Part shown: one piece after another, positions 4,474 to 55,165 of the stretch
How positions within the stretch are numbered: the first letter of the stretch is position 1
Layout of the letters: the number at the start of each line of letters is the position of its first letter
Source: an uncultured Chthonomonadaceae bacterium
GTDB lineage: Bacteria > Armatimonadota > Chthonomonadetes > Chthonomonadales > Chthonomonadaceae
NCBI GenBank assembly: GCA_963817895.1
Contig: CAWFQB010000001.1
Coordinates: 1,634,021-1,698,020 of the forward strand
DNA length: 64,000 bases
Reading direction: 5' to 3'
Notes under the pieces: model-generated
Seen by the model: the letters and a program-made list of their open reading frames with translations, nothing else
What the model was told of the DNA's origin: nothing
Database searches by the model: none
Position numbers and translations under genes: made by a program

Positions 4474-5562
4474 ATGAAACTGTTCGGAATCTCGCTGGGA
4501 AAAGAAAAAGCGGTTACGTTCAATGAGTTTCGGGATCAGGTGCGTCTGGCTGTCCGGCGCGCGCATCCCGGCGCGCGCATCGAAGCCAAAGATGACGGGT
4601 TTGTCCTCTACCGGGAGGGCGAGGCGCCGGTTGTCGGCAACATCAAGCAGTTGTACCACAACTACTATAAGAATCCGGGCGACCGTGACGCGCTTATCGG
4701 GGGATGGATCGCTTCGCTGACTTTCGAGACGCCGCAGCATAGCTGGATGGAGGCCGCCAACACCCTCCGCCCGACCCTGAAAAACACGACGTTCGTGGAT
4801 GCCGCCAACAAATCGTTGGGCAAGCAGGAGGACTCGCTGCCCTCAAAACCGTTTCTGGGCGACCTGCATGTGATCGTGATGCGCGACCTGCCGGGTACAG
4901 CGGTTGCCGTGACGCAGAAGATGATGGACGATTGGGGCGTCACCCTGCCGCAGTGCGTGACCGAAGCGATGAGCAATCTGGGCGTACAGAGTTTCCCCGA
5001 TGTTTCCAACGCCATGACGACAGGCGAGCGGCAAAAGGGGCATGATGGGCGAAGAGGTTGGACTGGATTTCAAAGGCGACCATCTAACGGCGACGTGGCT
5101 GATTTCGGAACGCTTTCGCGATTTTGTCGGGCAACGCTTGCAGGGCGATTATATTGTGGCGGTTCCCAACCGGGGACGATTGACCGCTGTACGCGCCGAT
5201 GAGCCGGGGCTGATCGCGTCCATTCAGCAGACCGCCCGCAACTACGGCTCTCAGCCCTATCCGCTCACGGGCATGCTGTTTCACGTCAGCGCGGCCACAA
5301 CGGGCGGTCAGGTGACAGTGTTTCAGCCGGGAGCGGCAGGCGGCACAACCGCCACTCTGGACGCCGGCAGCCAGTTCGCGGCAGGCAAAACGCCAGCCAC
5401 GCCGCCCAGCGTCGGCAATATTGCCGCAGGCATGGCTCCCCTGCCTTCCTCTCCGCGCAGCCCAAATCTCTGAACGAGTGGTACGGCCTGAGCGAATCCA
5501 CCCTTGACGAACCCGAACCGACCAATACGCCGCCGACCGTGAAGACGGCGAGGAAAAAATAG
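4474..5562 (+). CDS. Hypothetical protein, DUF1444/YtpQ-like; apparent indels near 5030 and 5468
   Basis: Consecutive overlapping ORFs 4474..5202 and 5042..5473 plus a short tail to TAG 5562. LRPTLK...PFLGDLHVIVMRD....VTQKMMDDWGV...AMSNL and IVAVPNRGRL resemble DUF1444. Confidence 0.5.
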
Positions 5563-38780: not shown

Positions 38781-39395
38781 TTATGCATGCGCAGAAGTTT
38801 TGCGATTTTTGATGAACCCGACCACTTTTTTGCCGGTTTTTACGCTTATCCAAACCATTAGCAGAGCGCAGGAGATCAGGATAACTGCGAAGATAAACGC
38901 GACAACGGGCGCGTGGATAGCCATCCAGACTCCCCCCGCCACAACGACATCTTCAAGCAGCGAAATGCCCAGGTTCGCGCTGCCGCCATGAAACGGGGCC
39001 AACACGGTGGATTTGGCGCGGGTGACGGCTTTACCGGCGTGAACGGAAAGGGCCGAGCCGCCGCCCACAATCAGGCCCAGAAGCATTGCCAGTTTGGGAT
39101 CAAGATGGGTGAGCGTGGCAGACGCGAGAATAGCCCCGGCAAGCGGGCGAGCGAGTGTGCCAACCACATCCAGAGCATGGTCAATCACAATCACTTTGTC
39201 GCCCAAAAACTCCAGCAGCGTGGCAATGCCAAGCACAATCAATACATCCACATGTGTCAGGAGGGCAAATTCAGGATTGATAGGCACAATCCCCATCCGC
39301 GCCAGCAACCCGAGCAGCAGCAGGGGCAGACACGCCCGCAGCCCGGAACACGCTCCCAGTGAAACGCCCATCAACACCTGCAATCCCGTACTCAT
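38781..39395 (-). CDS. DUF4126 membrane protein
   Basis: GLRACLPLL, LEFLGDKV..IDHALD, RPLAGA, N.GISLLED. Confidence 0.85.
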   Translation of the reverse strand: MSTGLQVLMGVSLGACSGLRACLPLLLLGLLARMGIVPINPEFALLTHVDVLIVLGIATLLEFLGDKVIVIDHALDVVGTLARPLAGAILASATLTHLDPKLAMLLGLIVGGGSALSVHAGKAVTRAKSTVLAPFHGGSANLGISLLEDVVVAGGVWMAIHAPVVAFIFAVILISCALLMVWISVKTGKKVVGFIKNRKTSAHA

Positions 39396-39422: not shown

Positions 39423-39548
39423 GGATAGGTTTCAGGTTTCAGGTGTCAGGTGTCAGTTCACCTTCTCCTTCTGATGCTGATACCAATATGAAGAAGGAGC
39501 AGAAAAGGAATTGCCTGAAACCTGAAACCTGAAACCTGAAACCTATCC
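39423..39548. repeat. Inverted tandem-repeat hairpin, unit TTTCAGG / CCTGAAA, overlapping the RNAP-like stop
   Basis: ggataggtttcaggtttcaggtgtcaggtgtcag vs ctgaaacctgaaacctgaaacctgaaacctatcc. Confidence 0.85.
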
Positions 39549-42500
39549 CACAAACAACCTCCCCACCGCATCCCGCAACGGGTCGGTTTCCTTCATTGCG
39601 GCGGCGCGGGCGAACACGAGGCCCGGTTGGGGTGAGCGCATGGCGCGGGTAAGGACGCCATACCCTGTATGCGCCTGTTCCGCGAACAGGGCTTTCTGAA
39701 CGTCAATCCATTGCTGAGAACCCCGGGCAATGCCTTCGCGCGCGCCGATGCAGTTCATAAAGAATTCCTGCGGCGTCAGGCCGTCGCGGTAGCCATGCTG
39801 AATGGTAAACCGGCTGCCGTTCAGAGTGGACACGACGCCCTGCGCTCCAACTACTTTCAGCAGCAGGCGCATTCCACCCCGCGCGCCACTGGCAAGCGTG
39901 AGCAGAACCGGGTCCGCAAGTTCTGCCGGCTGCCGCATCCGTTCGGCAATGCGGGCCGCGAACTCTTCCAGCCAGGCGTTCCACGCTTCGGGCGCATTGC
40001 CGATGGGACGCGGCGGGGCGGGCCAATTCTCGCCCAAAAACGGGCCGTATCCGCTTCCCATGCCTCGCGCCACCTCGAAACCGCGCATCGTAAGCGCGTG
40101 AAGAGTGTTCAAAGCGGGTTCGATTGCGGAATCGCCTTCTCGCGTCAGGCGTTGGCGCAACGGTTCTTCCAGCGCTTTTCGCGTCAGCAGGCCGTTTTCC
40201 TGCGCAACTGCAAAGCCGGTAATCTGCTCGAGTTCGGTTCGGCCTTCGGGCGTTCGCGTCAAAAACGCCAGCCCCAGCCGCGCGTCGTGCAGGGGACGGA
40301 GCAGAGACAGCACATCAGGGTCGCGCCGCAAATGGCCTGCAATCGTCAGGGTTTCGCCCGCTTCCTTTTGCGCCGCATCCGTAACGGGCAGAAACACGTT
40401 TGCCAGGTCGCCATCGAAGTCCAGACCCAACAGACCGCAGGCGAAAGGGTGTACCTGAATAGCCTGGCCGGGAATGCGAACCGGATGATAAGCCACAATG
40501 CCGGTTGCGGTCATCGTGGGCGCGCGATTAAGCAACACCCACGAACGCGCCATAACCTCATCCAGTATTTTTGCCGCTTCTGTAGTACGGGCTTGAACAG
40601 GTTCCATGCTGCCCATTTCACGCGCTGCAAGCGGAGCGAATAGCGTCCACGCGATTTCTTCCGGCAATCCCACCTGATCTGGTAACAGGTCCTTGCCAAT
40701 GGCAGCAACGGCTTGCCCGCTGAACTGCGTCCGCGCGCTGAATTTCAGATGCGTGGGCGTCAACAGAACCTCAAAGAACGCTTGCAGCCGCGTTTGCTGC
40801 TCACCCCGCGCCTGCGCCAGCAGGCTGTCGGGAGCCTGTCCCGCCCGCATCCGCGCCAGTCGCGCATTGGCTTCGACAAGCGCCCCATACTCGGGCAGTT
40901 CCACAAACGCGCCAATTCGAGACAGGGATATTTCCGGGTTCCAGGGATGCGGCGCGGGTTCGGCCAGTTCCAGTATCTCGCCTTCCGGTTCCGAAAGATG
41001 AAACGCCAGCCCCTGTTCGGAAAGGTCGCAGGCAATACCGCCACTTGCAAGCCGACGCGCCACGTCCGCCCACTGCGGCGCGGGGGCAGTGGACTGCTCG
41101 ACCACCCCTTCCGCCAGACGCTGCGGCAAGCGTTGCGGCGTCCGTTCGCGCCGCCGCCCGCGTGTTGAATGTTTCGCGGATGTTTTCATTTGCGCCCGCC
41201 ATACGCAGCACATGAAATTCCGCCTGCCCAATGCGCGAACAGTGAGCGGGCGAAGCCGTCGCGCGTATTTTGTCCCCGGCCACATGGTACAGCCGTCCCC
41301 AGTACACCCATCCAACGGTACCCGGCGCGAACATGGGCGGGCCATTCTTATCTATGGTCAGCGTTCTCATGCCGCTCGGCGGCAATCCGGCAGTCATTAT
41401 CCGCGCTTGTAACTCTGCATCATCGGGCGCGGCAAACGGCGGCACGATAATCGGTTCGCCCTCCGCTTTCGCCGCGCAGCTCAAAACCGCCTCGCGCGTT
41501 TGCCCGAACGTCATACGGCTGTGCAGGCTCATCGGGCTGAAGGCCAACTCGACGGGCGTTCGCCGCTCGGTTCCATCGCTGTTGGTTTCCAGCAGGTGCG
41601 GCATGGCGTCATCCGGCACAATCCGCGCAACCACGCCCTTGTTGCCATGCCGATTGCTCAATTTGTCGCCCGGTTGTATGGGAAAGGGGTAGTTCAGCCG
41701 TCGGGCGCAGGATTGGCTGATAAGAATACTGTCATCGAATGTGTCTATTCCGCCCGCAACATACGCGGTGAGCAAATTGCGCCCGCACCAGAAGTCCGGC
41801 GCGTTGGTGGGTTCGCTCCCCGTTTGTATCAGCGCGGGTTCCGGGTCGGGCGGAACAATCCACTGCCATAACATGTTAGCGGCCATGACCAGACGGCACG
41901 AGTCGTTGTGTTCCAAAAATGGAAGCATCCGCGCGTTCGCGCCCAGATTGCCGAGCGGACTGTCGTCTACAACAATCAATTTGCCGTGGCGGATTGTCGC
42001 GCCCGTCGCTACCACCAGAATCCGCCCCACATTCGGGCCTTCCGGGGTTTCTATGGGACACGTCGCGCCCGAAATGTCCCTGCGTGAACATGCGCGGATT
42101 GTCCGGCAGGACAATGCGGCGCAATTGCGTGTGCCGTTCCAGCCAGCGCGCTTTCGCTTCCCAGGGCATTTTCGGCACTGCCTGCCCGCGCAATCGAATG
42201 AACTCCTCAACCCATGTTTCCAGCGGCAGCCACGTTCGCAGCAGATTTTCGTCCCATTCCAGTTCGAGCGGCGCTTCGCCCAACCGGGCCGCGCAACAGG
42301 CGTGTAGTTGCTCGCCCGCGCACTGAATGTCGGCCTGCTCCAATTCGTCCGAAGACGCTATCGGCAGCACAACATACTCTTTCCCATTCACTACAAACAC
42401 CCCATCCGCATCCGGCTGCGGCACATTGGTAAACGTCACTTTCAGCGTGTTCGCGCCCACTCCAATCTCAATCGTCACCCGACACGCATATTCCCCCGCG

Positions 42501-42691
42501 CTTTCCACGCCGTACCCCACCAGCGGAACCCGGCTGACCAGCAATTGCGGCAGCGTTTCCCGCAAAAACCGCGCATAACTCGCCCGATGCCAGGGCGCGG
42601 CAAAGGATGAAGGATGAAGGATGAAGGATGAATCCACTCCTGCAATCTCCTTTTCTCCTTTTCTCCTTTTCTCCTCTTCTTCTCTTCTCAT
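39543..42691 (-). CDS. Minimised single-chain RNA polymerase beta-beta' fusion homolog (~1048 aa after correcting two +1 indels near 42064 and 41125)
   Basis: RpoB motifs in order: DGVFVVNG, HFGR.CPIETPEGPNVG, LPFLEHND..R.VMAANM..Q, TFDDSILIS, IQPGDKLSNRHGNKGVV, SRMTFGQ, GWVYWGRLYH..DK. Then RpoC motifs in order: LAEPAPHPW, FSGQAV, VLLNRAPT, GLDFDGD, SGARG, YRDGLT..EFF...GAREG, ETDPLR. Confidence 0.88.
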
Positions 42692-43275
42692 TCTTCCTCT
42701 CCTTGTTCCGCGTTCCAGCAGCGGCTTAGATGTTTACGGGCGTGGTACAGGCGGGACTTGACCGTGCCTTCGGGGATGTCGAGCAGGTCGGCAACGTCGC
42801 GCAGTTCCATGTCTTCCTCGTAGACCAGGCGCAGCATGGCGCGCCGGGCTTCGGGCAGGCCGGCAACCAGACGGCGCAGGCGATGAGACTCCTCGGATTG
42901 CAGGGCGCATTGTTCCGGGGTGGGCGTAGCCGTGTCCAGCATCCACGCCGGGGGCGCATCGTCCGCGCTGTCCGCGTCACCGGATTCCAACGATTGTTCG
43001 CGCCGACGCTTGCGATTGCGCAGGTCGTTGAGGGCAAGGTTGGTGGCAACCCGAAACAGCCATGATTTTACGGTTCCGCGTCCGTCCCACTGCTCGGCCC
43101 GCGTCCATACCCGCAGCAGGGTTTCTTGCAGCAGGTCATCCGCCACATCGGGCTGACGCGCCATGCCGATCAAGTACCGCCGCAAGGTATCCCGATACCG
43201 CGCTGCCAGTGTTTCAAACGCCTGCCCATTCCTCGCCGCGATTTTCGCCAGTAGTTCTTCATCCGACAGCATCAT
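42688..43275 (-). CDS. ECF RNA polymerase sigma factor, coupled to the RNAP-like gene
   Basis: SDEELL...AFETL..RY, ADDLLQET.LRVW, KSWLFRVATNLALN.LR, VADLLDIPEGTVKSRLYHARKHL; ATGA overlap at 42688-42691. Confidence 0.95.
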   Translation of the reverse strand: MMLSDEELLAKIAARNGQAFETLAARYRDTLRRYLIGMARQPDVADDLLQETLLRVWTRAEQWDGRGTVKSWLFRVATNLALNDLRNRKRRREQSLESGDADSADDAPPAWMLDTATPTPEQCALQSEESHRLRRLVAGLPEARRAMLRLVYEEDMELRDVADLLDIPEGTVKSRLYHARKHLSRCWNAEQGEEE

Positions 43276-43395
43276 TGCTTCCTTAATAAATGGAGAGTGC
43301 CGCGAAGGAACGCGCCGAAATCATTTAGCCGCAAATCTGCGCGAATGGACACAAATACCGGAAACCGTGTCACAATACCTGATACACCGCTCAGG

Positions 43396-43482
43396 ACACC
43401 ACAGGAGAAGCAACGGTTCAATATCCGTGTTGTTTTCTTTTTTCTCTGTGAAACCTCTGTGTCTCTGCGCCTCTGTGGTGAA
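43396..43482. repeat. Degenerate palindromic/low-complexity repeat element upstream of the sigma gene
   Basis: caccacagga... vs ctctgtgaaacctctgtgtctctgcgcctctgtggtg; same style as the 12820-13006 element. Confidence 0.4.
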
Positions 43483-51551: not shown

Positions 51552-52202
51552 GTGAATATAGATGAGGGGAGCGAACCGGTGAAGCGTTGCGGAATAGCCT
51601 TTGAAACATTGGCGGATTATCACGAGGGGAAAGCGGATGCAAGCGTATCCGCGCGGATTCGTGAACACCTCGACCGGGATTGCCTCCATTGCCGGCAGAA
51701 CCTCGCCTGGCTGGAACGCGCAACGGGTACGCTGCGGGAAGCGCCGTTCGTACAGGTTCCCGAAGCCGCGCTGGAACGCGCCCGCGCTCTGTTCCGCGAA
51801 AGGTATCCCTCCCCTGCCACCCTTCCCAATCCCCTGTTTGCCTGGCTGGCGCAACTGCAATTCGACAGCCGCAGCAGCGCGCCGATGCTGGCCGGGGCGC
51901 GTGGCATGAAGCGCGAAGGCGTTCAGCTTGTATACAGCACCGAGGTTCACGACATTGATCTATTTCAGGAGTTGTCCGGGGAGGGAACCTGGTATCTAAT
52001 CGGGCAAGTGATGCCGCGAGATGGTGAAGCGACCATTGTGCCGCAAGAGGTTGTTCTGACAGAGCGCGGCGGCAATCGTCTCACGTTCGCGCCGGAAAGC
52101 GGGGAGTTCCATCTGCCTGCCATTCCCGAAGGCATTTACGACATCGCGCTGCGCCTTGCGGATGGCGAAATCACGCTTCCGGGCGTGGGAATCGGGCAAT
52201 GA
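51552..52202 (+). CDS. Soluble zinc-finger (zf-HC2-like) anti-sigma-like protein with C-terminal carboxypeptidase-regulatory-like beta domain
   Basis: C......LADY.EG......IREHLDRDCLHCR; FDSR....LAGARG; GEFHLPAIPEGIYDI; no TM segment. Confidence 0.7.
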   Translation: MNIDEGSEPVKRCGIAFETLADYHEGKADASVSARIREHLDRDCLHCRQNLAWLERATGTLREAPFVQVPEAALERARALFRERYPSPATLPNPLFAWLAQLQFDSRSSAPMLAGARGMKREGVQLVYSTEVHDIDLFQELSGEGTWYLIGQVMPRDGEATIVPQEVVLTERGGNRLTFAPESGEFHLPAIPEGIYDIALRLADGEITLPGVGIGQ

Positions 52203-55165
52203 GCAGCGACACCTCCCCGGAAATTTTAGAAGCATTGGAAATCCTGTGCCAACGCCTTTTCGCCCCGACCGAAACGCCGAAAGCGGAAACGGCGGAACGC
52301 GAGGCATTGCTGCGGGAAGCCGCCGGACAGCCCGAATGCCTGCCCTATCTGCTCGAATCCGCGCGCAGTCGTATGGGCGAGGATACGAGCGACGCCATTC
52401 AACGGGCGCGTCTTGCTACTGTTCTCGCGGAACGGAACGGGGATGGAAACGGCGGCGCGCAGGCGTGGCGGCTTATCGGGCAGGGCTTGCGCGTTCAGGG
52501 AAATCATGCGGCGGCCTGCATCGCTCTGGAAACGGCGGCGGCCTGCGCCATGCAGTCGGGAAACGCGCGCCTGGCCGCGCAGTCGCAGATCGGGCGCATT
52601 GATTCGCTGAACTGGCTTGGACGCTATGACGACGCGGTTGCGCTGGCGCGTCGCCTTGAAACCGAACTGCGGGCGCATGGCGAAGATACGGATGCCGCCA
52701 AAGTGCTGGTTAATCTGGGCGCGCTGCACTATCGCCGCGATCAATATCCTGCCGCCCTGTCCTGCTACGAACGCGCCCTGCAAACGCTGGAACCAGGCGG
52801 GGAAGCCCTTGCCTGCGCGACGGTGCAGACCAATATTGCCGCTGTCCTGATGGAACTGCATCGCGTGGATGAGGCCATTACGCTTTTCGAGCAGGCCCGC
52901 GCGACATTTGCCGACAATGCGCTTTTTACGCCCGCCGCCAAAATAGATGCCAATGTCGGGTTCCTGCACTATCTTTCGGGGCGGTACGCGCAGGCTGTAT
53001 CCGCGCTACAGCGGGCGCGCGAGGAGTTTGCCGGCAGGGGGCAGATGCTGGAAGCGGCCAAATGCGACGCGGATGTGGCTGAAGCGTACCGGGAACTGAA
53101 TCTCTATCCCGAAGCGCGGGAAGCCTGCGAGCGCGCGTCCCGCGAACTGGAAGCGGCAGGCGTCCCCTACGAACGCGCCCGCGTCGCGTTGGTGCTGGCG
53201 TCGGTTTGCATGGCGGAGGGGCAGAACGAAACCGCGCTGGCAAGCCTGGAACAGGCGGAACGCCTCTTCGCCGCGCATCGCAATTCTACGCAGGGAGCGC
53301 TTGTCCGCCTGCTCCGCGCGCGTTTGCTGCGGCAGGACGGGCGCAGGGACGAGGCCAAACGGGAGGCGAGTCGCGCGGCTCGAACCCTGACGCGGGCCGG
53401 ACGGCGAGGATGGGCGGCGGAAGCCCGCCTGTTGCTGGCGGAAATGGCGCATGAGGACGGACAAAACGCGGCGCGTCTCCTTCATGCCGTTCGCAATACC
53501 GCGCGGGCAACCAGACGCGGCTGGCTGGAATCGCAGGCGGAACGGGCGCTCGGACGACACTATTTGAGCAAAGGCCAGTCGGCGCGCGGCCTGCGGCATT
53601 TGCGCGACAGCGTTCAGGCATTGGAGCAGGCGCGAACGCTGATCGCCCCGGAAGAGTTGCATGTCTCGTTTTTGCGCGACAAATTGCCGATATATGAGGA
53701 AACCGTAAGCGCGCTTGTGGCGCGGGGGCGCAGGCAGGACATTTCGGACGCGCTGGAATATGTGGAACGCGCCAAATCCCGCCTGTTGCTGGAGCGGGTA
53801 CAGGCCGCGCTGGAGAGCCGCGCGCCTGCCGACAATATCCTCCCCTCTCCGTCCCGCGAACGCCTGGCAACCCTGCGCGCCGAACTGAGCCGGAGTTACC
53901 AGAAGCTGAATGTGGTTGACGAGAGCGAAGCGCGGCGCATCGGCGCCGCGGGAACGGAAGCAACTTCCGCCCTCAACGCGCTGGAACACGAGTACGCGGA
54001 CGCCCTGCGCCGGGAGGAACTGACGGCTCACAACGCTTCCGGCCTGTTTGCCCTTCCCGATGTGGTTCCCACAAACGATCTGGCGGATTGCCTGCAAAGC
54101 AATGAAGCGCTGCTGGTTTACTATATGGTTGACGGCGCGATTTGCGCCTGGGTTGTGACACGGCGGGGAGTGCATTTTCGCGGGAATATCGCCGGCGTGG
54201 AAGATGTAAACCATGCGGCCCGACGCCTGCGCTATCAATTGCAGCGCGTCGGGTGGGCCAGCGAACTTTCGGAGCGTCACGCCCTCCGGTTTCAGGCCGA
54301 TGCGCAGGGCGTCCTTGCGCGGCTGTACGACCTGTTGCTGCGCCCGGTTGCCGACCTGCTTGCCTCCGAATGTCTTGTCGTGGTTCCCCATGCCGCCCTG
54401 CACGGCCTGCCGTTCCATGCGTTTTTTGACGGCGAACATCACGCGCTGGATCAGTGGGAGATCAGTTACGCGCCCAGCGCGGCCCTGTGGCATCGGGGCG
54501 CGCAGAATCAGGATTCGGATAATGCAAAGGGAGTGTGTTATAATGAGTTGGAAGCTCTTCTTGTCAGCGTACCCTCCCCCGGCATTGAACAGGTGACACA
54601 GGAAGTCACTCGATTAGCGCAGTTATTGCCCCACGCCTGCGTTCTGCATGGCGGCGCGGCCACCCTCGAAGCGGTGCAGGCGCGCGCCCCACATTGCCGC
54701 CTGCTGCATCTGGCGACCCATGCTCTGTACCGCGCCGACAACCCCCTGTTTTCCGGCCTGCAACTGGCGGATGGCTGGCTGCTCGCCCGCGACCTGTACG
54801 CGACGCGGCTGAATTGTGACCTGGCAACCCTTTCCGCCTGCCAGACCGGAGTGACACAGGTAGCATCCGGCGACGAGTTGTTCGGATTGGTACGCGGCTT
54901 TCTGGCGGCGGGCGTCCGAACCGTAGCCGCCAGTCTGTGGCCCGCCGACGATCAGGCGACAGCAGCGTTGATGCAGGAGTTTTATGATCGTCTTTTGCAG
55001 GGGCAATCGAAAGCCGCCGCCCTGCGGGGCGCGCAGCAGGCTATACAAACCCAATTTCCGCATCCCTATCACTGGGCTGCCTTCGCGCTCATCGGCGAAC
55101 GCGGCAGCGATGGCTTAGAACCGATCCCAACAGGCCGGGTACAGAGAACGTACCCGTCTGCGTAG
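52199..55165 (+). CDS. TPR-CHAT (caspase-like) protease
   Basis: Extensive N-terminal TPRs; VVPHAALHGLPFHA, LLHLATHA (His), TLSACQTG (Cys), ASLW.ADD, HPYHWAAF; ATGA overlap with the upstream gene. Confidence 0.93.
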   Translation: MSSDTSPEILEALEILCQRLFAPTETPKAETAEREALLREAAGQPECLPYLLESARSRMGEDTSDAIQRARLATVLAERNGDGNGGAQAWRLIGQGLRVQGNHAAACIALETAAACAMQSGNARLAAQSQIGRIDSLNWLGRYDDAVALARRLETELRAHGEDTDAAKVLVNLGALHYRRDQYPAALSCYERALQTLEPGGEALACATVQTNIAAVLMELHRVDEAITLFEQARATFADNALFTPAAKIDANVGFLHYLSGRYAQAVSALQRAREEFAGRGQMLEAAKCDADVAEAYRELNLYPEAREACERASRELEAAGVPYERARVALVLASVCMAEGQNETALASLEQAERLFAAHRNSTQGALVRLLRARLLRQDGRRDEAKREASRAARTLTRAGRRGWAAEARLLLAEMAHEDGQNAARLLHAVRNTARATRRGWLESQAERALGRHYLSKGQSARGLRHLRDSVQALEQARTLIAPEELHVSFLRDKLPIYEETVSALVARGRRQDISDALEYVERAKSRLLLERVQAALESRAPADNILPSPSRERLATLRAELSRSYQKLNVVDESEARRIGAAGTEATSALNALEHEYADALRREELTAHNASGLFALPDVVPTNDLADCLQSNEALLVYYMVDGAICAWVVTRRGVHFRGNIAGVEDVNHAARRLRYQLQRVGWASELSERHALRFQADAQGVLARLYDLLLRPVADLLASECLVVVPHAALHGLPFHAFFDGEHHALDQWEISYAPSAALWHRGAQNQDSDNAKGVCYNELEALLVSVPSPGIEQVTQEVTRLAQLLPHACVLHGGAATLEAVQARAPHCRLLHLATHALYRADNPLFSGLQLADGWLLARDLYATRLNCDLATLSACQTGVTQVASGDELFGLVRGFLAAGVRTVAASLWPADDQATAALMQEFYDRLLQGQSKAAALRGAQQAIQTQFPHPYHWAAFALIGERGSDGLEPIPTGRVQRTYPSA

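Follow-up and report, generated by a model that had tools for sequence, protein, structure and literature searches.

The minus strand of the window (the whole stretch of DNA analysed here, 64,000 nucleotides from an uncultured Chthonomonadaceae bacterium) carries a cassette of two genes, an ECF sigma factor gene followed by a gene in which RpoB and RpoC motifs are found in series (Table 1). The first ATG of the second gene, which we call the mini polymerase gene, overlaps the stop codon of the sigma gene. Normal rpoB and rpoC genes are also present in this genome, on contig C3. Short simple repeats lie on both sides of the cassette and reach into it (window 42600-42690, 43330-43470 and 39430-39545), and the repeat stretch in the N-terminal extension of the polymerase matches many other places in the genome. 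Elsewhere in the window (51552-55165, plus strand), a 216-aa open reading frame in which an anti-sigma-like HxxxCxxC motif was recognised by eye, and which has no Pfam match, overlaps the start of a gene for a 988-aa TPR-CHAT protease; no ECF gene was seen beside this pair.

Table 1. Positions of the genes, promoter elements and protein features of the cassette in the window
Feature	Position	Strand	Basis or remark
ECF sigma factor, 195 aa (sigma2, linker, sigma4)	42688..43275	-	Pfam Sigma70_r2 and Sigma70_r4_2
Single-chain mini RNA polymerase gene (pruned rpoB-rpoC fusion), in three frames in the assembly	39543..42691	-	tblastn; Pfam Rpb2_3, Rpb2_6 and Rpb1_2
-35 element TGAAC of the cassette promoter	43416..43420	-	motif in 70 of 72 upstream regions
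-10 element GGTGTC, 15 nt past TGAAC	43395..43400	-	
Predicted transcription start, purine after pyrimidine, 10 nt past the -10 element	43385	-	prediction
Flap scar: FDDSILISQ, 11-aa linker, IQP; RpoB has about 170 aa there	41671..41739	-	
Beta barrel catalytic motif GDKLSNRHGNKG	41635..41670	-	first K in 63 of 63 rows, second K in 59 of 63
Beta-to-beta' junction; elements that we take to be the zipper, zinc-binding domain and clamp head are absent	40890..41070 (approximate bounds)	-	
Clamp-helix hairpin (equivalent of beta' 269-309), YGALVEANAR...FFEV	40767..40889	-	R278, R281, P288 and L291 retained; 275 and 295 are both A
DFDGD motif for Mg binding; the window copy has G in place of the N two residues upstream	40407..40421	-	
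Bridge helix, with a short C-terminal segment immediately after it and without trigger loop	39546..39782	-	model helix H985-1016
Frameshift 1 (one base too many, probably through an assembly error)	42063		
Frameshift 2 (one base too many, probably through an assembly error)	41122..41123		

The flap scar and the clamp-helix hairpin of the window copy sit in different reading frames, a point on which the initial annotation was silent. Intact relatives of 1,023-1,060 aa match the window in three consecutive frames with 71-89% identity (tblastn). The extra base of the first frameshift is missing in contigs of three of the four sequencing runs examined, one of these contigs having one other difference in 189 nt, and that of the second is missing in two contigs of one run (related, not identical DNA). 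Since the essential host rpoC also shifts frame twice, in its first part (L001:7455-8800, contig C3 of G000), both frameshifts of the mini polymerase gene are probably assembly errors. A functional family of which the window copy is a pseudogene with two real frameshifts would explain the three frames in the assembly, and reads of the identical strain were not found, the best run sharing 0.14 of words. However, neither extra base is present in the related short-read contigs, the host rpoC behaves in the same way, the genome is 81% complete in 14 contigs, and the promoter and all motifs of the cassette are intact; thus we consider a pseudogene very improbable.

The mini polymerase is one chain of about 1,020 aa, with beta followed by beta'. 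In this chain, Pfam finds only RNA polymerase families and no known anti-sigma domain; the NCBIfam cut-offs for rpoB (140 versus 801 bits) and rpoC (128 versus 964 bits) were not reached. The clamp-helix hairpin is kept, and the flap, zinc-binding domain, lobe, rudder, switch 3 and trigger loop are missing. When compared with host RpoB, the family profile skips the stretches 128 to 468 and 837 to 1006 and has a further gap, which we take to be the lobe, the flap and switch 3, respectively. The deletion of the flap, which had been claimed from the window copy (11 residues between DDSILISQ and IQPGDK), was found across the family: the distance from F(E/D)D to GDK is 23 aa in all 54 parseable rows of the 63 examined, versus 183 aa in host RpoB. 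Among 64 distant representatives (full-length representatives of 50%-identity clusters), the distance is 23 aa in 47 and 24, 25 or 44 aa in three, and 14 were not parsed. The beta' N-terminal zinc-binding domain had also been described as gone, and we agree, as only 57-98 aa (median 60) lie between the beta C-terminus and the clamp, without a conserved set of cysteines (0 or 1 Cys in 56 of 63 rows). This short junction aligns weakly, either to the lid region of beta' or to an earlier motif. Approximately 25 residues past the hairpin (rudder and switch 2) are missing in the profile comparison with the host, and trigger-loop motifs were found in none of the 63 family rows; about 40 aa follow the bridge helix. 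The AlphaFold2 model of an intact relative, P0001 (80% identical over the clamp region), had a mean pLDDT of 88.8 and a pTM of 0.85. Foldseek with this model returned beta and beta' chains, and VIA gave a Z of 29.5 and an rmsd of 2.7 A (525 aa), values that apply to the beta half alone, the beta' half being barely tested.

A homologue search gave, as its best 120 matches, proteins of 928-1,107 aa, each of which has the catalytic Pfam domains of both beta and beta'. The genome scan confirmed 300 stretches, and 80 loci were taken further, from Armatimonadota, Chloroflexota, Poribacteria, Latescibacterota, Planctomycetota and Hydrogenedentota, among others. At 75 of the 80 loci, the same type of ECF gene lies directly upstream on the same strand; four loci have no upstream DNA and one (L004) has no sigma gene. 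In a phylum sample of 151 genomes, the polymerase was found in 13 and the sigma factor, at E<=1e-50, in 9, all of them among the 13 polymerase carriers; since this threshold missed two divergent adjacent sigma factors, divergent orphan sigma factors could be missed too. Fifteen of the 18 well-supported splits of the sigma tree recur in the polymerase tree, although such congruence is expected for linked genes and we do not count it as co-evolution of an interface. The dN/dS, determined for 14 pairs of which 8 are from Poribacteria, was 0.165 overall; the beta barrel had 0.064, the hairpin 0.267 (the highest of the regions) and the sigma factor 0.145. The same cuts across several phyla, together with the low overall value, support the earlier suggestion that the deletions result from selection rather than from decay. 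Because the family members are kin, all of these counts overstate independence.

A conserved third gene was rejected, as the shared neighbours are mostly explained by synteny within Poribacteria. In the window, the gene after the polymerase encodes a DUF4126 membrane protein (38781-39395, minus strand), which is also found in the closest relative, L002, and in no other scanned flanking open reading frame. A mobile origin was likewise rejected (0 of 33 pattern matches in viral contigs; phage and plasmid records with 80% coverage were not found). For a natural fusion of the full sigma factor with the polymerase, there was one match in 8,000 scored candidates, P0121, which is without sigma4 or clamp, and this possibility was discarded; P0121 is a protein of 640 aa with sigma2 and the linker joined to the beta half, and is probably a deletion product. 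One Chthonomonadaceae genome (L004:5146, L158) has two mini polymerase copies, one with the sigma gene and the other directly behind the same promoter without it.

Upstream of the sigma gene, TGAAC-N15-GGTGTC was found in 70 of 72 cassettes. The core of this pattern, GAAC-N18-GTC, occurs in 68 and its N17 variant in 2 of the 72 upstream regions, of which the window is one, whereas 20 shuffles predict 0.85. The pattern was, however, derived from the same sequences in which it was counted. It also held in 10 of 10 loci of the phylum sample with room for it, 7 of which were new and unused in the derivation, and the cassette site is the best genome-wide match of the promoter profile. Ten nucleotides past the -10 element there is a purine in 68 of 68 cases, preceded by a pyrimidine in 65 of 68. 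This pyrimidine-purine step was seen in 19 of 22 cases with a long leader and in 6 of 9 further loci, versus 11 of 39 non-cassette matches, the start-site signature being absent from these other exact matches in 10 genomes. The two elements resemble those of sigmaE, GGAACTT and GTC, as given in PMC6648896. Counted as AAC-N17-TGTC (68 of the 72 loci), the spacer lies at the upper end of the range of 14-17 bp for ECF promoters, where the counting convention follows our interpretation of PMC5758882. Thus, the promoter is of a rigid bipartite ECF type with a fixed and ordinary spacing and a start-site signature, and the unusual promoter geometry envisaged in the initial annotation is not supported. 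According to PMC2613000, the flap normally helps to set the spacer, and thus a normal spacing fits the host core equally well. We infer that the cassette promoter is recognised by the sigma factor of the cassette itself. As for the regulon, the source genome has 12 profile matches above 14 bits, and of the 8 inspected the cassette site alone convinced us. When 13 other genomes were searched for the exact pattern, the 47 matches examined had no downstream gene in common outside the cassette, and 26 of them sit inside long open reading frames.

The sigma factor has the layout of ECF (group 4) proteins, sigma2 and sigma4 only, with a short linker (TIGR02937, 102 versus 42.9 bits), and the helices of the model agree. 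The window protein has the canonical D47, Q50 and E51, and E129, E153 and W187 on the side facing the flap. Across the family the sigma2 contact residues at these three positions are those of ordinary ECF sigma factors, and thus the protein may still bind the host core. In sigmaE, ten contacts with the flap tip are listed in PMC6648896. We mapped them by alignment onto sets dereplicated at 65% (40 of 70 family rows and 58 of 60 control ECF sigma factors). The position of L151 is hydrophobic in 2 of 40 family rows versus 49 of 58 other ECF sigma factors, with which an alignment-free check agrees, that of L123 in 2 of 40 versus 26 of 55, and that of L127 in 4 of 40 versus 27 of 55. The V185 position is W in 36 of 40 family members versus 2 of 52 others; this position and those of V131, I135 and I181 stay hydrophobic in 39-40 of the 40 rows, and those of L121, F132 and I189 do not discriminate the family from other ECF sigma factors. 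Of the ten positions of this sigma4 surface, therefore, three have shifted to polar residues relative to the controls, four are hydrophobic and three are uninformative. The window sigma factor itself retains L at the L123 position. As far as the alignment tells, the sigma factor has partly lost its flap-contact surface, and the changes are on the side that would contact the flap if it were present. Since the sigma family is one clade, this loss may be a single ancestral event. A polar patch at this place should weaken the use of the -35 element by this sigma factor on the host core. In the model of the sigma factor alone, the linker is disordered (pLDDT under 50 at 98-115). The linker carries a motif, PxWMID, at residues 109-114 (window about 42950-42935), which this ECF family has conserved (W in 60 of 63) and which is a candidate polymerase contact; in PMC6648896, ECF linkers are reported as unconserved.

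The initial annotation further stated that the fusion keeps the clamp helices that bind sigma2. The hairpin itself is recognisable: a family profile restricted to this stretch finds the clamp helices in the RpoC of the same genome (c-E 3e-6 versus 700 aa), within a match of E 4e-40, and the P0001 model has a two-helix hairpin (H611-628 and H633-654). The residues for binding, however, were retained in part only. The contacts listed in PMC10216364 are R275, R278, R281, L282, L285, I291, E295 and M298, and the hairpin was numbered so that these positions match the E. coli peptide to which the earlier annotation had aligned it. Position 278 is R or K in 61 and 281 is R in 56 of 63 rows, 282 and 291 remain hydrophobic, and P288 is invariant, so that four of the eight listed positions hold their residue or its type. 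R275 and E295 are present in 0 of 63 rows and are mostly replaced by A (small residues); L285 is also present in none, with mostly S, N or G instead, and position 298 is mostly Q. In 49 and 44 of the 64 distant representatives, the residues at 278 and 281, respectively, are basic. The sigma-facing positions have a mean entropy of 2.0 bits versus 3.0 bits for the other non-core positions (p 0.006), in a test in which classes were assigned by hand and positions are not independent. We therefore regard the sigma-facing surface, as read from these alignments, as kept but remodelled. Together with the upstream ECF gene at 75 of 80 loci, the stronger conservation of the sigma-facing than of the other exposed positions supports the functional tie to the neighbouring ECF factor proposed before.

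The hairpin might also serve the structure of the protein or another binder, of which NusG is a possible one. The two genes would then share a transcriptional link only: the ECF factor and the host core would express a fusion with a sigma-independent nucleotidyl-transfer job, such as the production of short RNAs or primers or non-specific transcription. The family-wide replacement of R275 and E295 by small residues is in line with this, as are the lower conservation of the hairpin relative to the whole protein (0.58 versus 0.66), its top regional dN/dS (0.27) and the failure to find a regulon. However, the exposed face still carries R278 and R281 (with basic residues in 61 and 56 of 63 rows), the changes in the sigma factor fall on the surface facing the missing flap, and the two genes stay adjacent across phyla. 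For these reasons we think that a mere transcriptional link is quite unlikely.

The active site is conserved in the 64 distant representatives. DxDGD is intact in 61, the basic residues of the second barrel are K in 59 (plus 4 with R) and in 60, and the active-site Arg and His are kept in 63 and 57, respectively. The residue two before DxDGD, presumably the ribose-selecting one, is N in 37 of them, D in 17 and G in the window copy. By sequence, therefore, the protein has the marks of two-barrel nucleotidyltransferases, the DxDxD aspartate triad and two basic residues from the second barrel. YonO makes RNA efficiently without a recognisable trigger loop, according to PMC5467207, and thus the deletions in the fusion do not exclude activity.

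Conserved catalytic residues also argue against a pure decoy, which was one of the two roles originally suggested for the fusion. In this alternative, the ECF factor with the host core transcribes the cassette, and the fusion acts as an anti-sigma by binding the ECF factor via the clamp hairpin and so shuts the loop off. Such a role would agree with the canonical sigma2 contact motif, the ordinary promoter spacing, the loss of trigger loop, rudder and switch 3, and the second polymerase copy of L004 behind the same promoter without a sigma gene. It would also agree with the flanking genes: anti-sigma Pfam families are absent from all 119 same-strand flanking open reading frames, in accordance with the earlier statement that no conventional anti-sigma gene is adjacent. 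A decoy, however, has no need of the two active-site halves, which are kept in 57-63 of the 64 distant representatives, nor of its strongest purifying selection in the beta barrel, as was found, and the polar patch of the sigma factor should impair its -35 recognition on the host core. The decoy is thus weakened, both by the catalytic residues and by the loss of flap contacts on the sigma factor itself, and we regard it as unlikely, though not negligible. If it should apply, a polymerase would here have been turned into a novel type of anti-sigma.

Because the catalytic residues are intact, the losses of the flap and of the flap contacts are matched and the promoter is strict, we somewhat favour a dedicated, self-transcribing holoenzyme which would place sigma region 4 without a flap. 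Region 2 of the ECF factor would dock on the remodelled clamp hairpin of the single-chain polymerase and open the GGTGTC element, and region 4 would read TGAAC at normal spacing in a flap-free manner, possibly held by the linker or the C-terminal helix of the sigma factor itself, or by nearby remnants of the polymerase. RNA would be made by the conserved two-barrel active site without a trigger loop, as in YonO, and, with the promoter of the cassette as the only target found, positive feedback would result. Host alpha subunits may be needed. Two segments of the polymerase profile, 336-362 and 405-440, are well conserved; we take them to be the alpha-subunit contacts in beta, and thus the mini polymerase may recruit the host alpha dimer. 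Against the holoenzyme we count the four changed clamp contacts out of eight, the four flap-contact positions that are still hydrophobic, the regulon that was not found, and the G of the window copy in place of what we assume to be the ribose-selecting N.

In textbook models, the flap is a ruler that sets how far the -35 element lies from the -10 element. In the present cassette, a flap-less core, a sigma factor that is apparently stripped of part of its flap contacts and a promoter of fixed spacing co-occur across several phyla. Two questions, that of a minimal sigma-dependent polymerase and that of the need for the flap in -35 recognition, are thus opened with two small proteins and a 26-bp promoter. 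The fuller reading, to which we give slightly less than an even chance, is a chromosomal, single-chain, sigma-dependent RNA polymerase of approximately 110 kDa with flap-free -35/-10 recognition and no trigger loop, whose sigma factor would be co-adapted to it, the pair being orthogonal to the host enzyme. If active and orthogonal, the pair would offer synthetic biology a small expression system.

Comparison of the fusion with the bacterial core RpoB/RpoC in ECF holoenzymes (for example, E. coli sigmaE-RPo, PMC6648896) shows clear descent from beta and beta'. The cassette and these holoenzymes have in common the catalytic motifs, the clamp hairpin, the bridge helix and an AAC...GTC promoter. 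However, the fusion is one chain of about 1,020 aa, whereas canonical beta and beta' have about 2,700 aa, and unlike the canonical core it occurs as a second copy next to the normal rpoBC. Full-length rpoB-rpoC fusions (NCBIfam PRK09603 and PRK14844) also have beta followed by beta' in one chain, but these are main enzymes of about 2,800 aa, and the mini polymerase scores 120-160 bits against their cut-offs of 4,632-5,372. The long fusions checked still match the stretch of host beta that holds the flap, and the mini polymerase does not. YonO of phage SP-beta, as described in PMC5467207, has a similar single-chain two-barrel form of about 100 kDa and is active without a recognisable trigger loop. 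It shares only catalytic residues with cellular polymerases (same source), whereas the mini polymerase is 30-45% identical to RpoB/RpoC segments. Furthermore, the mini polymerase is paired with an ECF factor and, unlike the phage protein, was not found in the viral contigs or in the phage and plasmid records searched. Operons of an ECF factor and its cognate anti-sigma (PMC8103513) likewise have two genes, apparent autoregulation and a -35 element of the AAC type; in these the second gene encodes the anti-sigma, whereas in the cassette it encodes a polymerase-like protein with intact active-site residues. On these comparisons, the cassette would resemble a bacterial ECF holoenzyme in its working, and because the flap, zinc domain and trigger loop of the canonical core are missing, we place the protein with the two-barrel polymerases.

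None of the curated families searched covers the mini polymerase, and the ESM Atlas clusters carry generic names only. No description of the family was found in the literature searched, although it may have been mentioned earlier by Iyer and Aravind (2012), and the ECF re-classification (PMC7826278) had no match in the main text or in one supplement. Other beta-beta' fusions of intermediate size exist, namely P0260, P0269 and ESM Atlas clusters of 1,330-1,787 aa, and these may be other pruned lineages; P0260 and P0269 retain the trigger-loop region.
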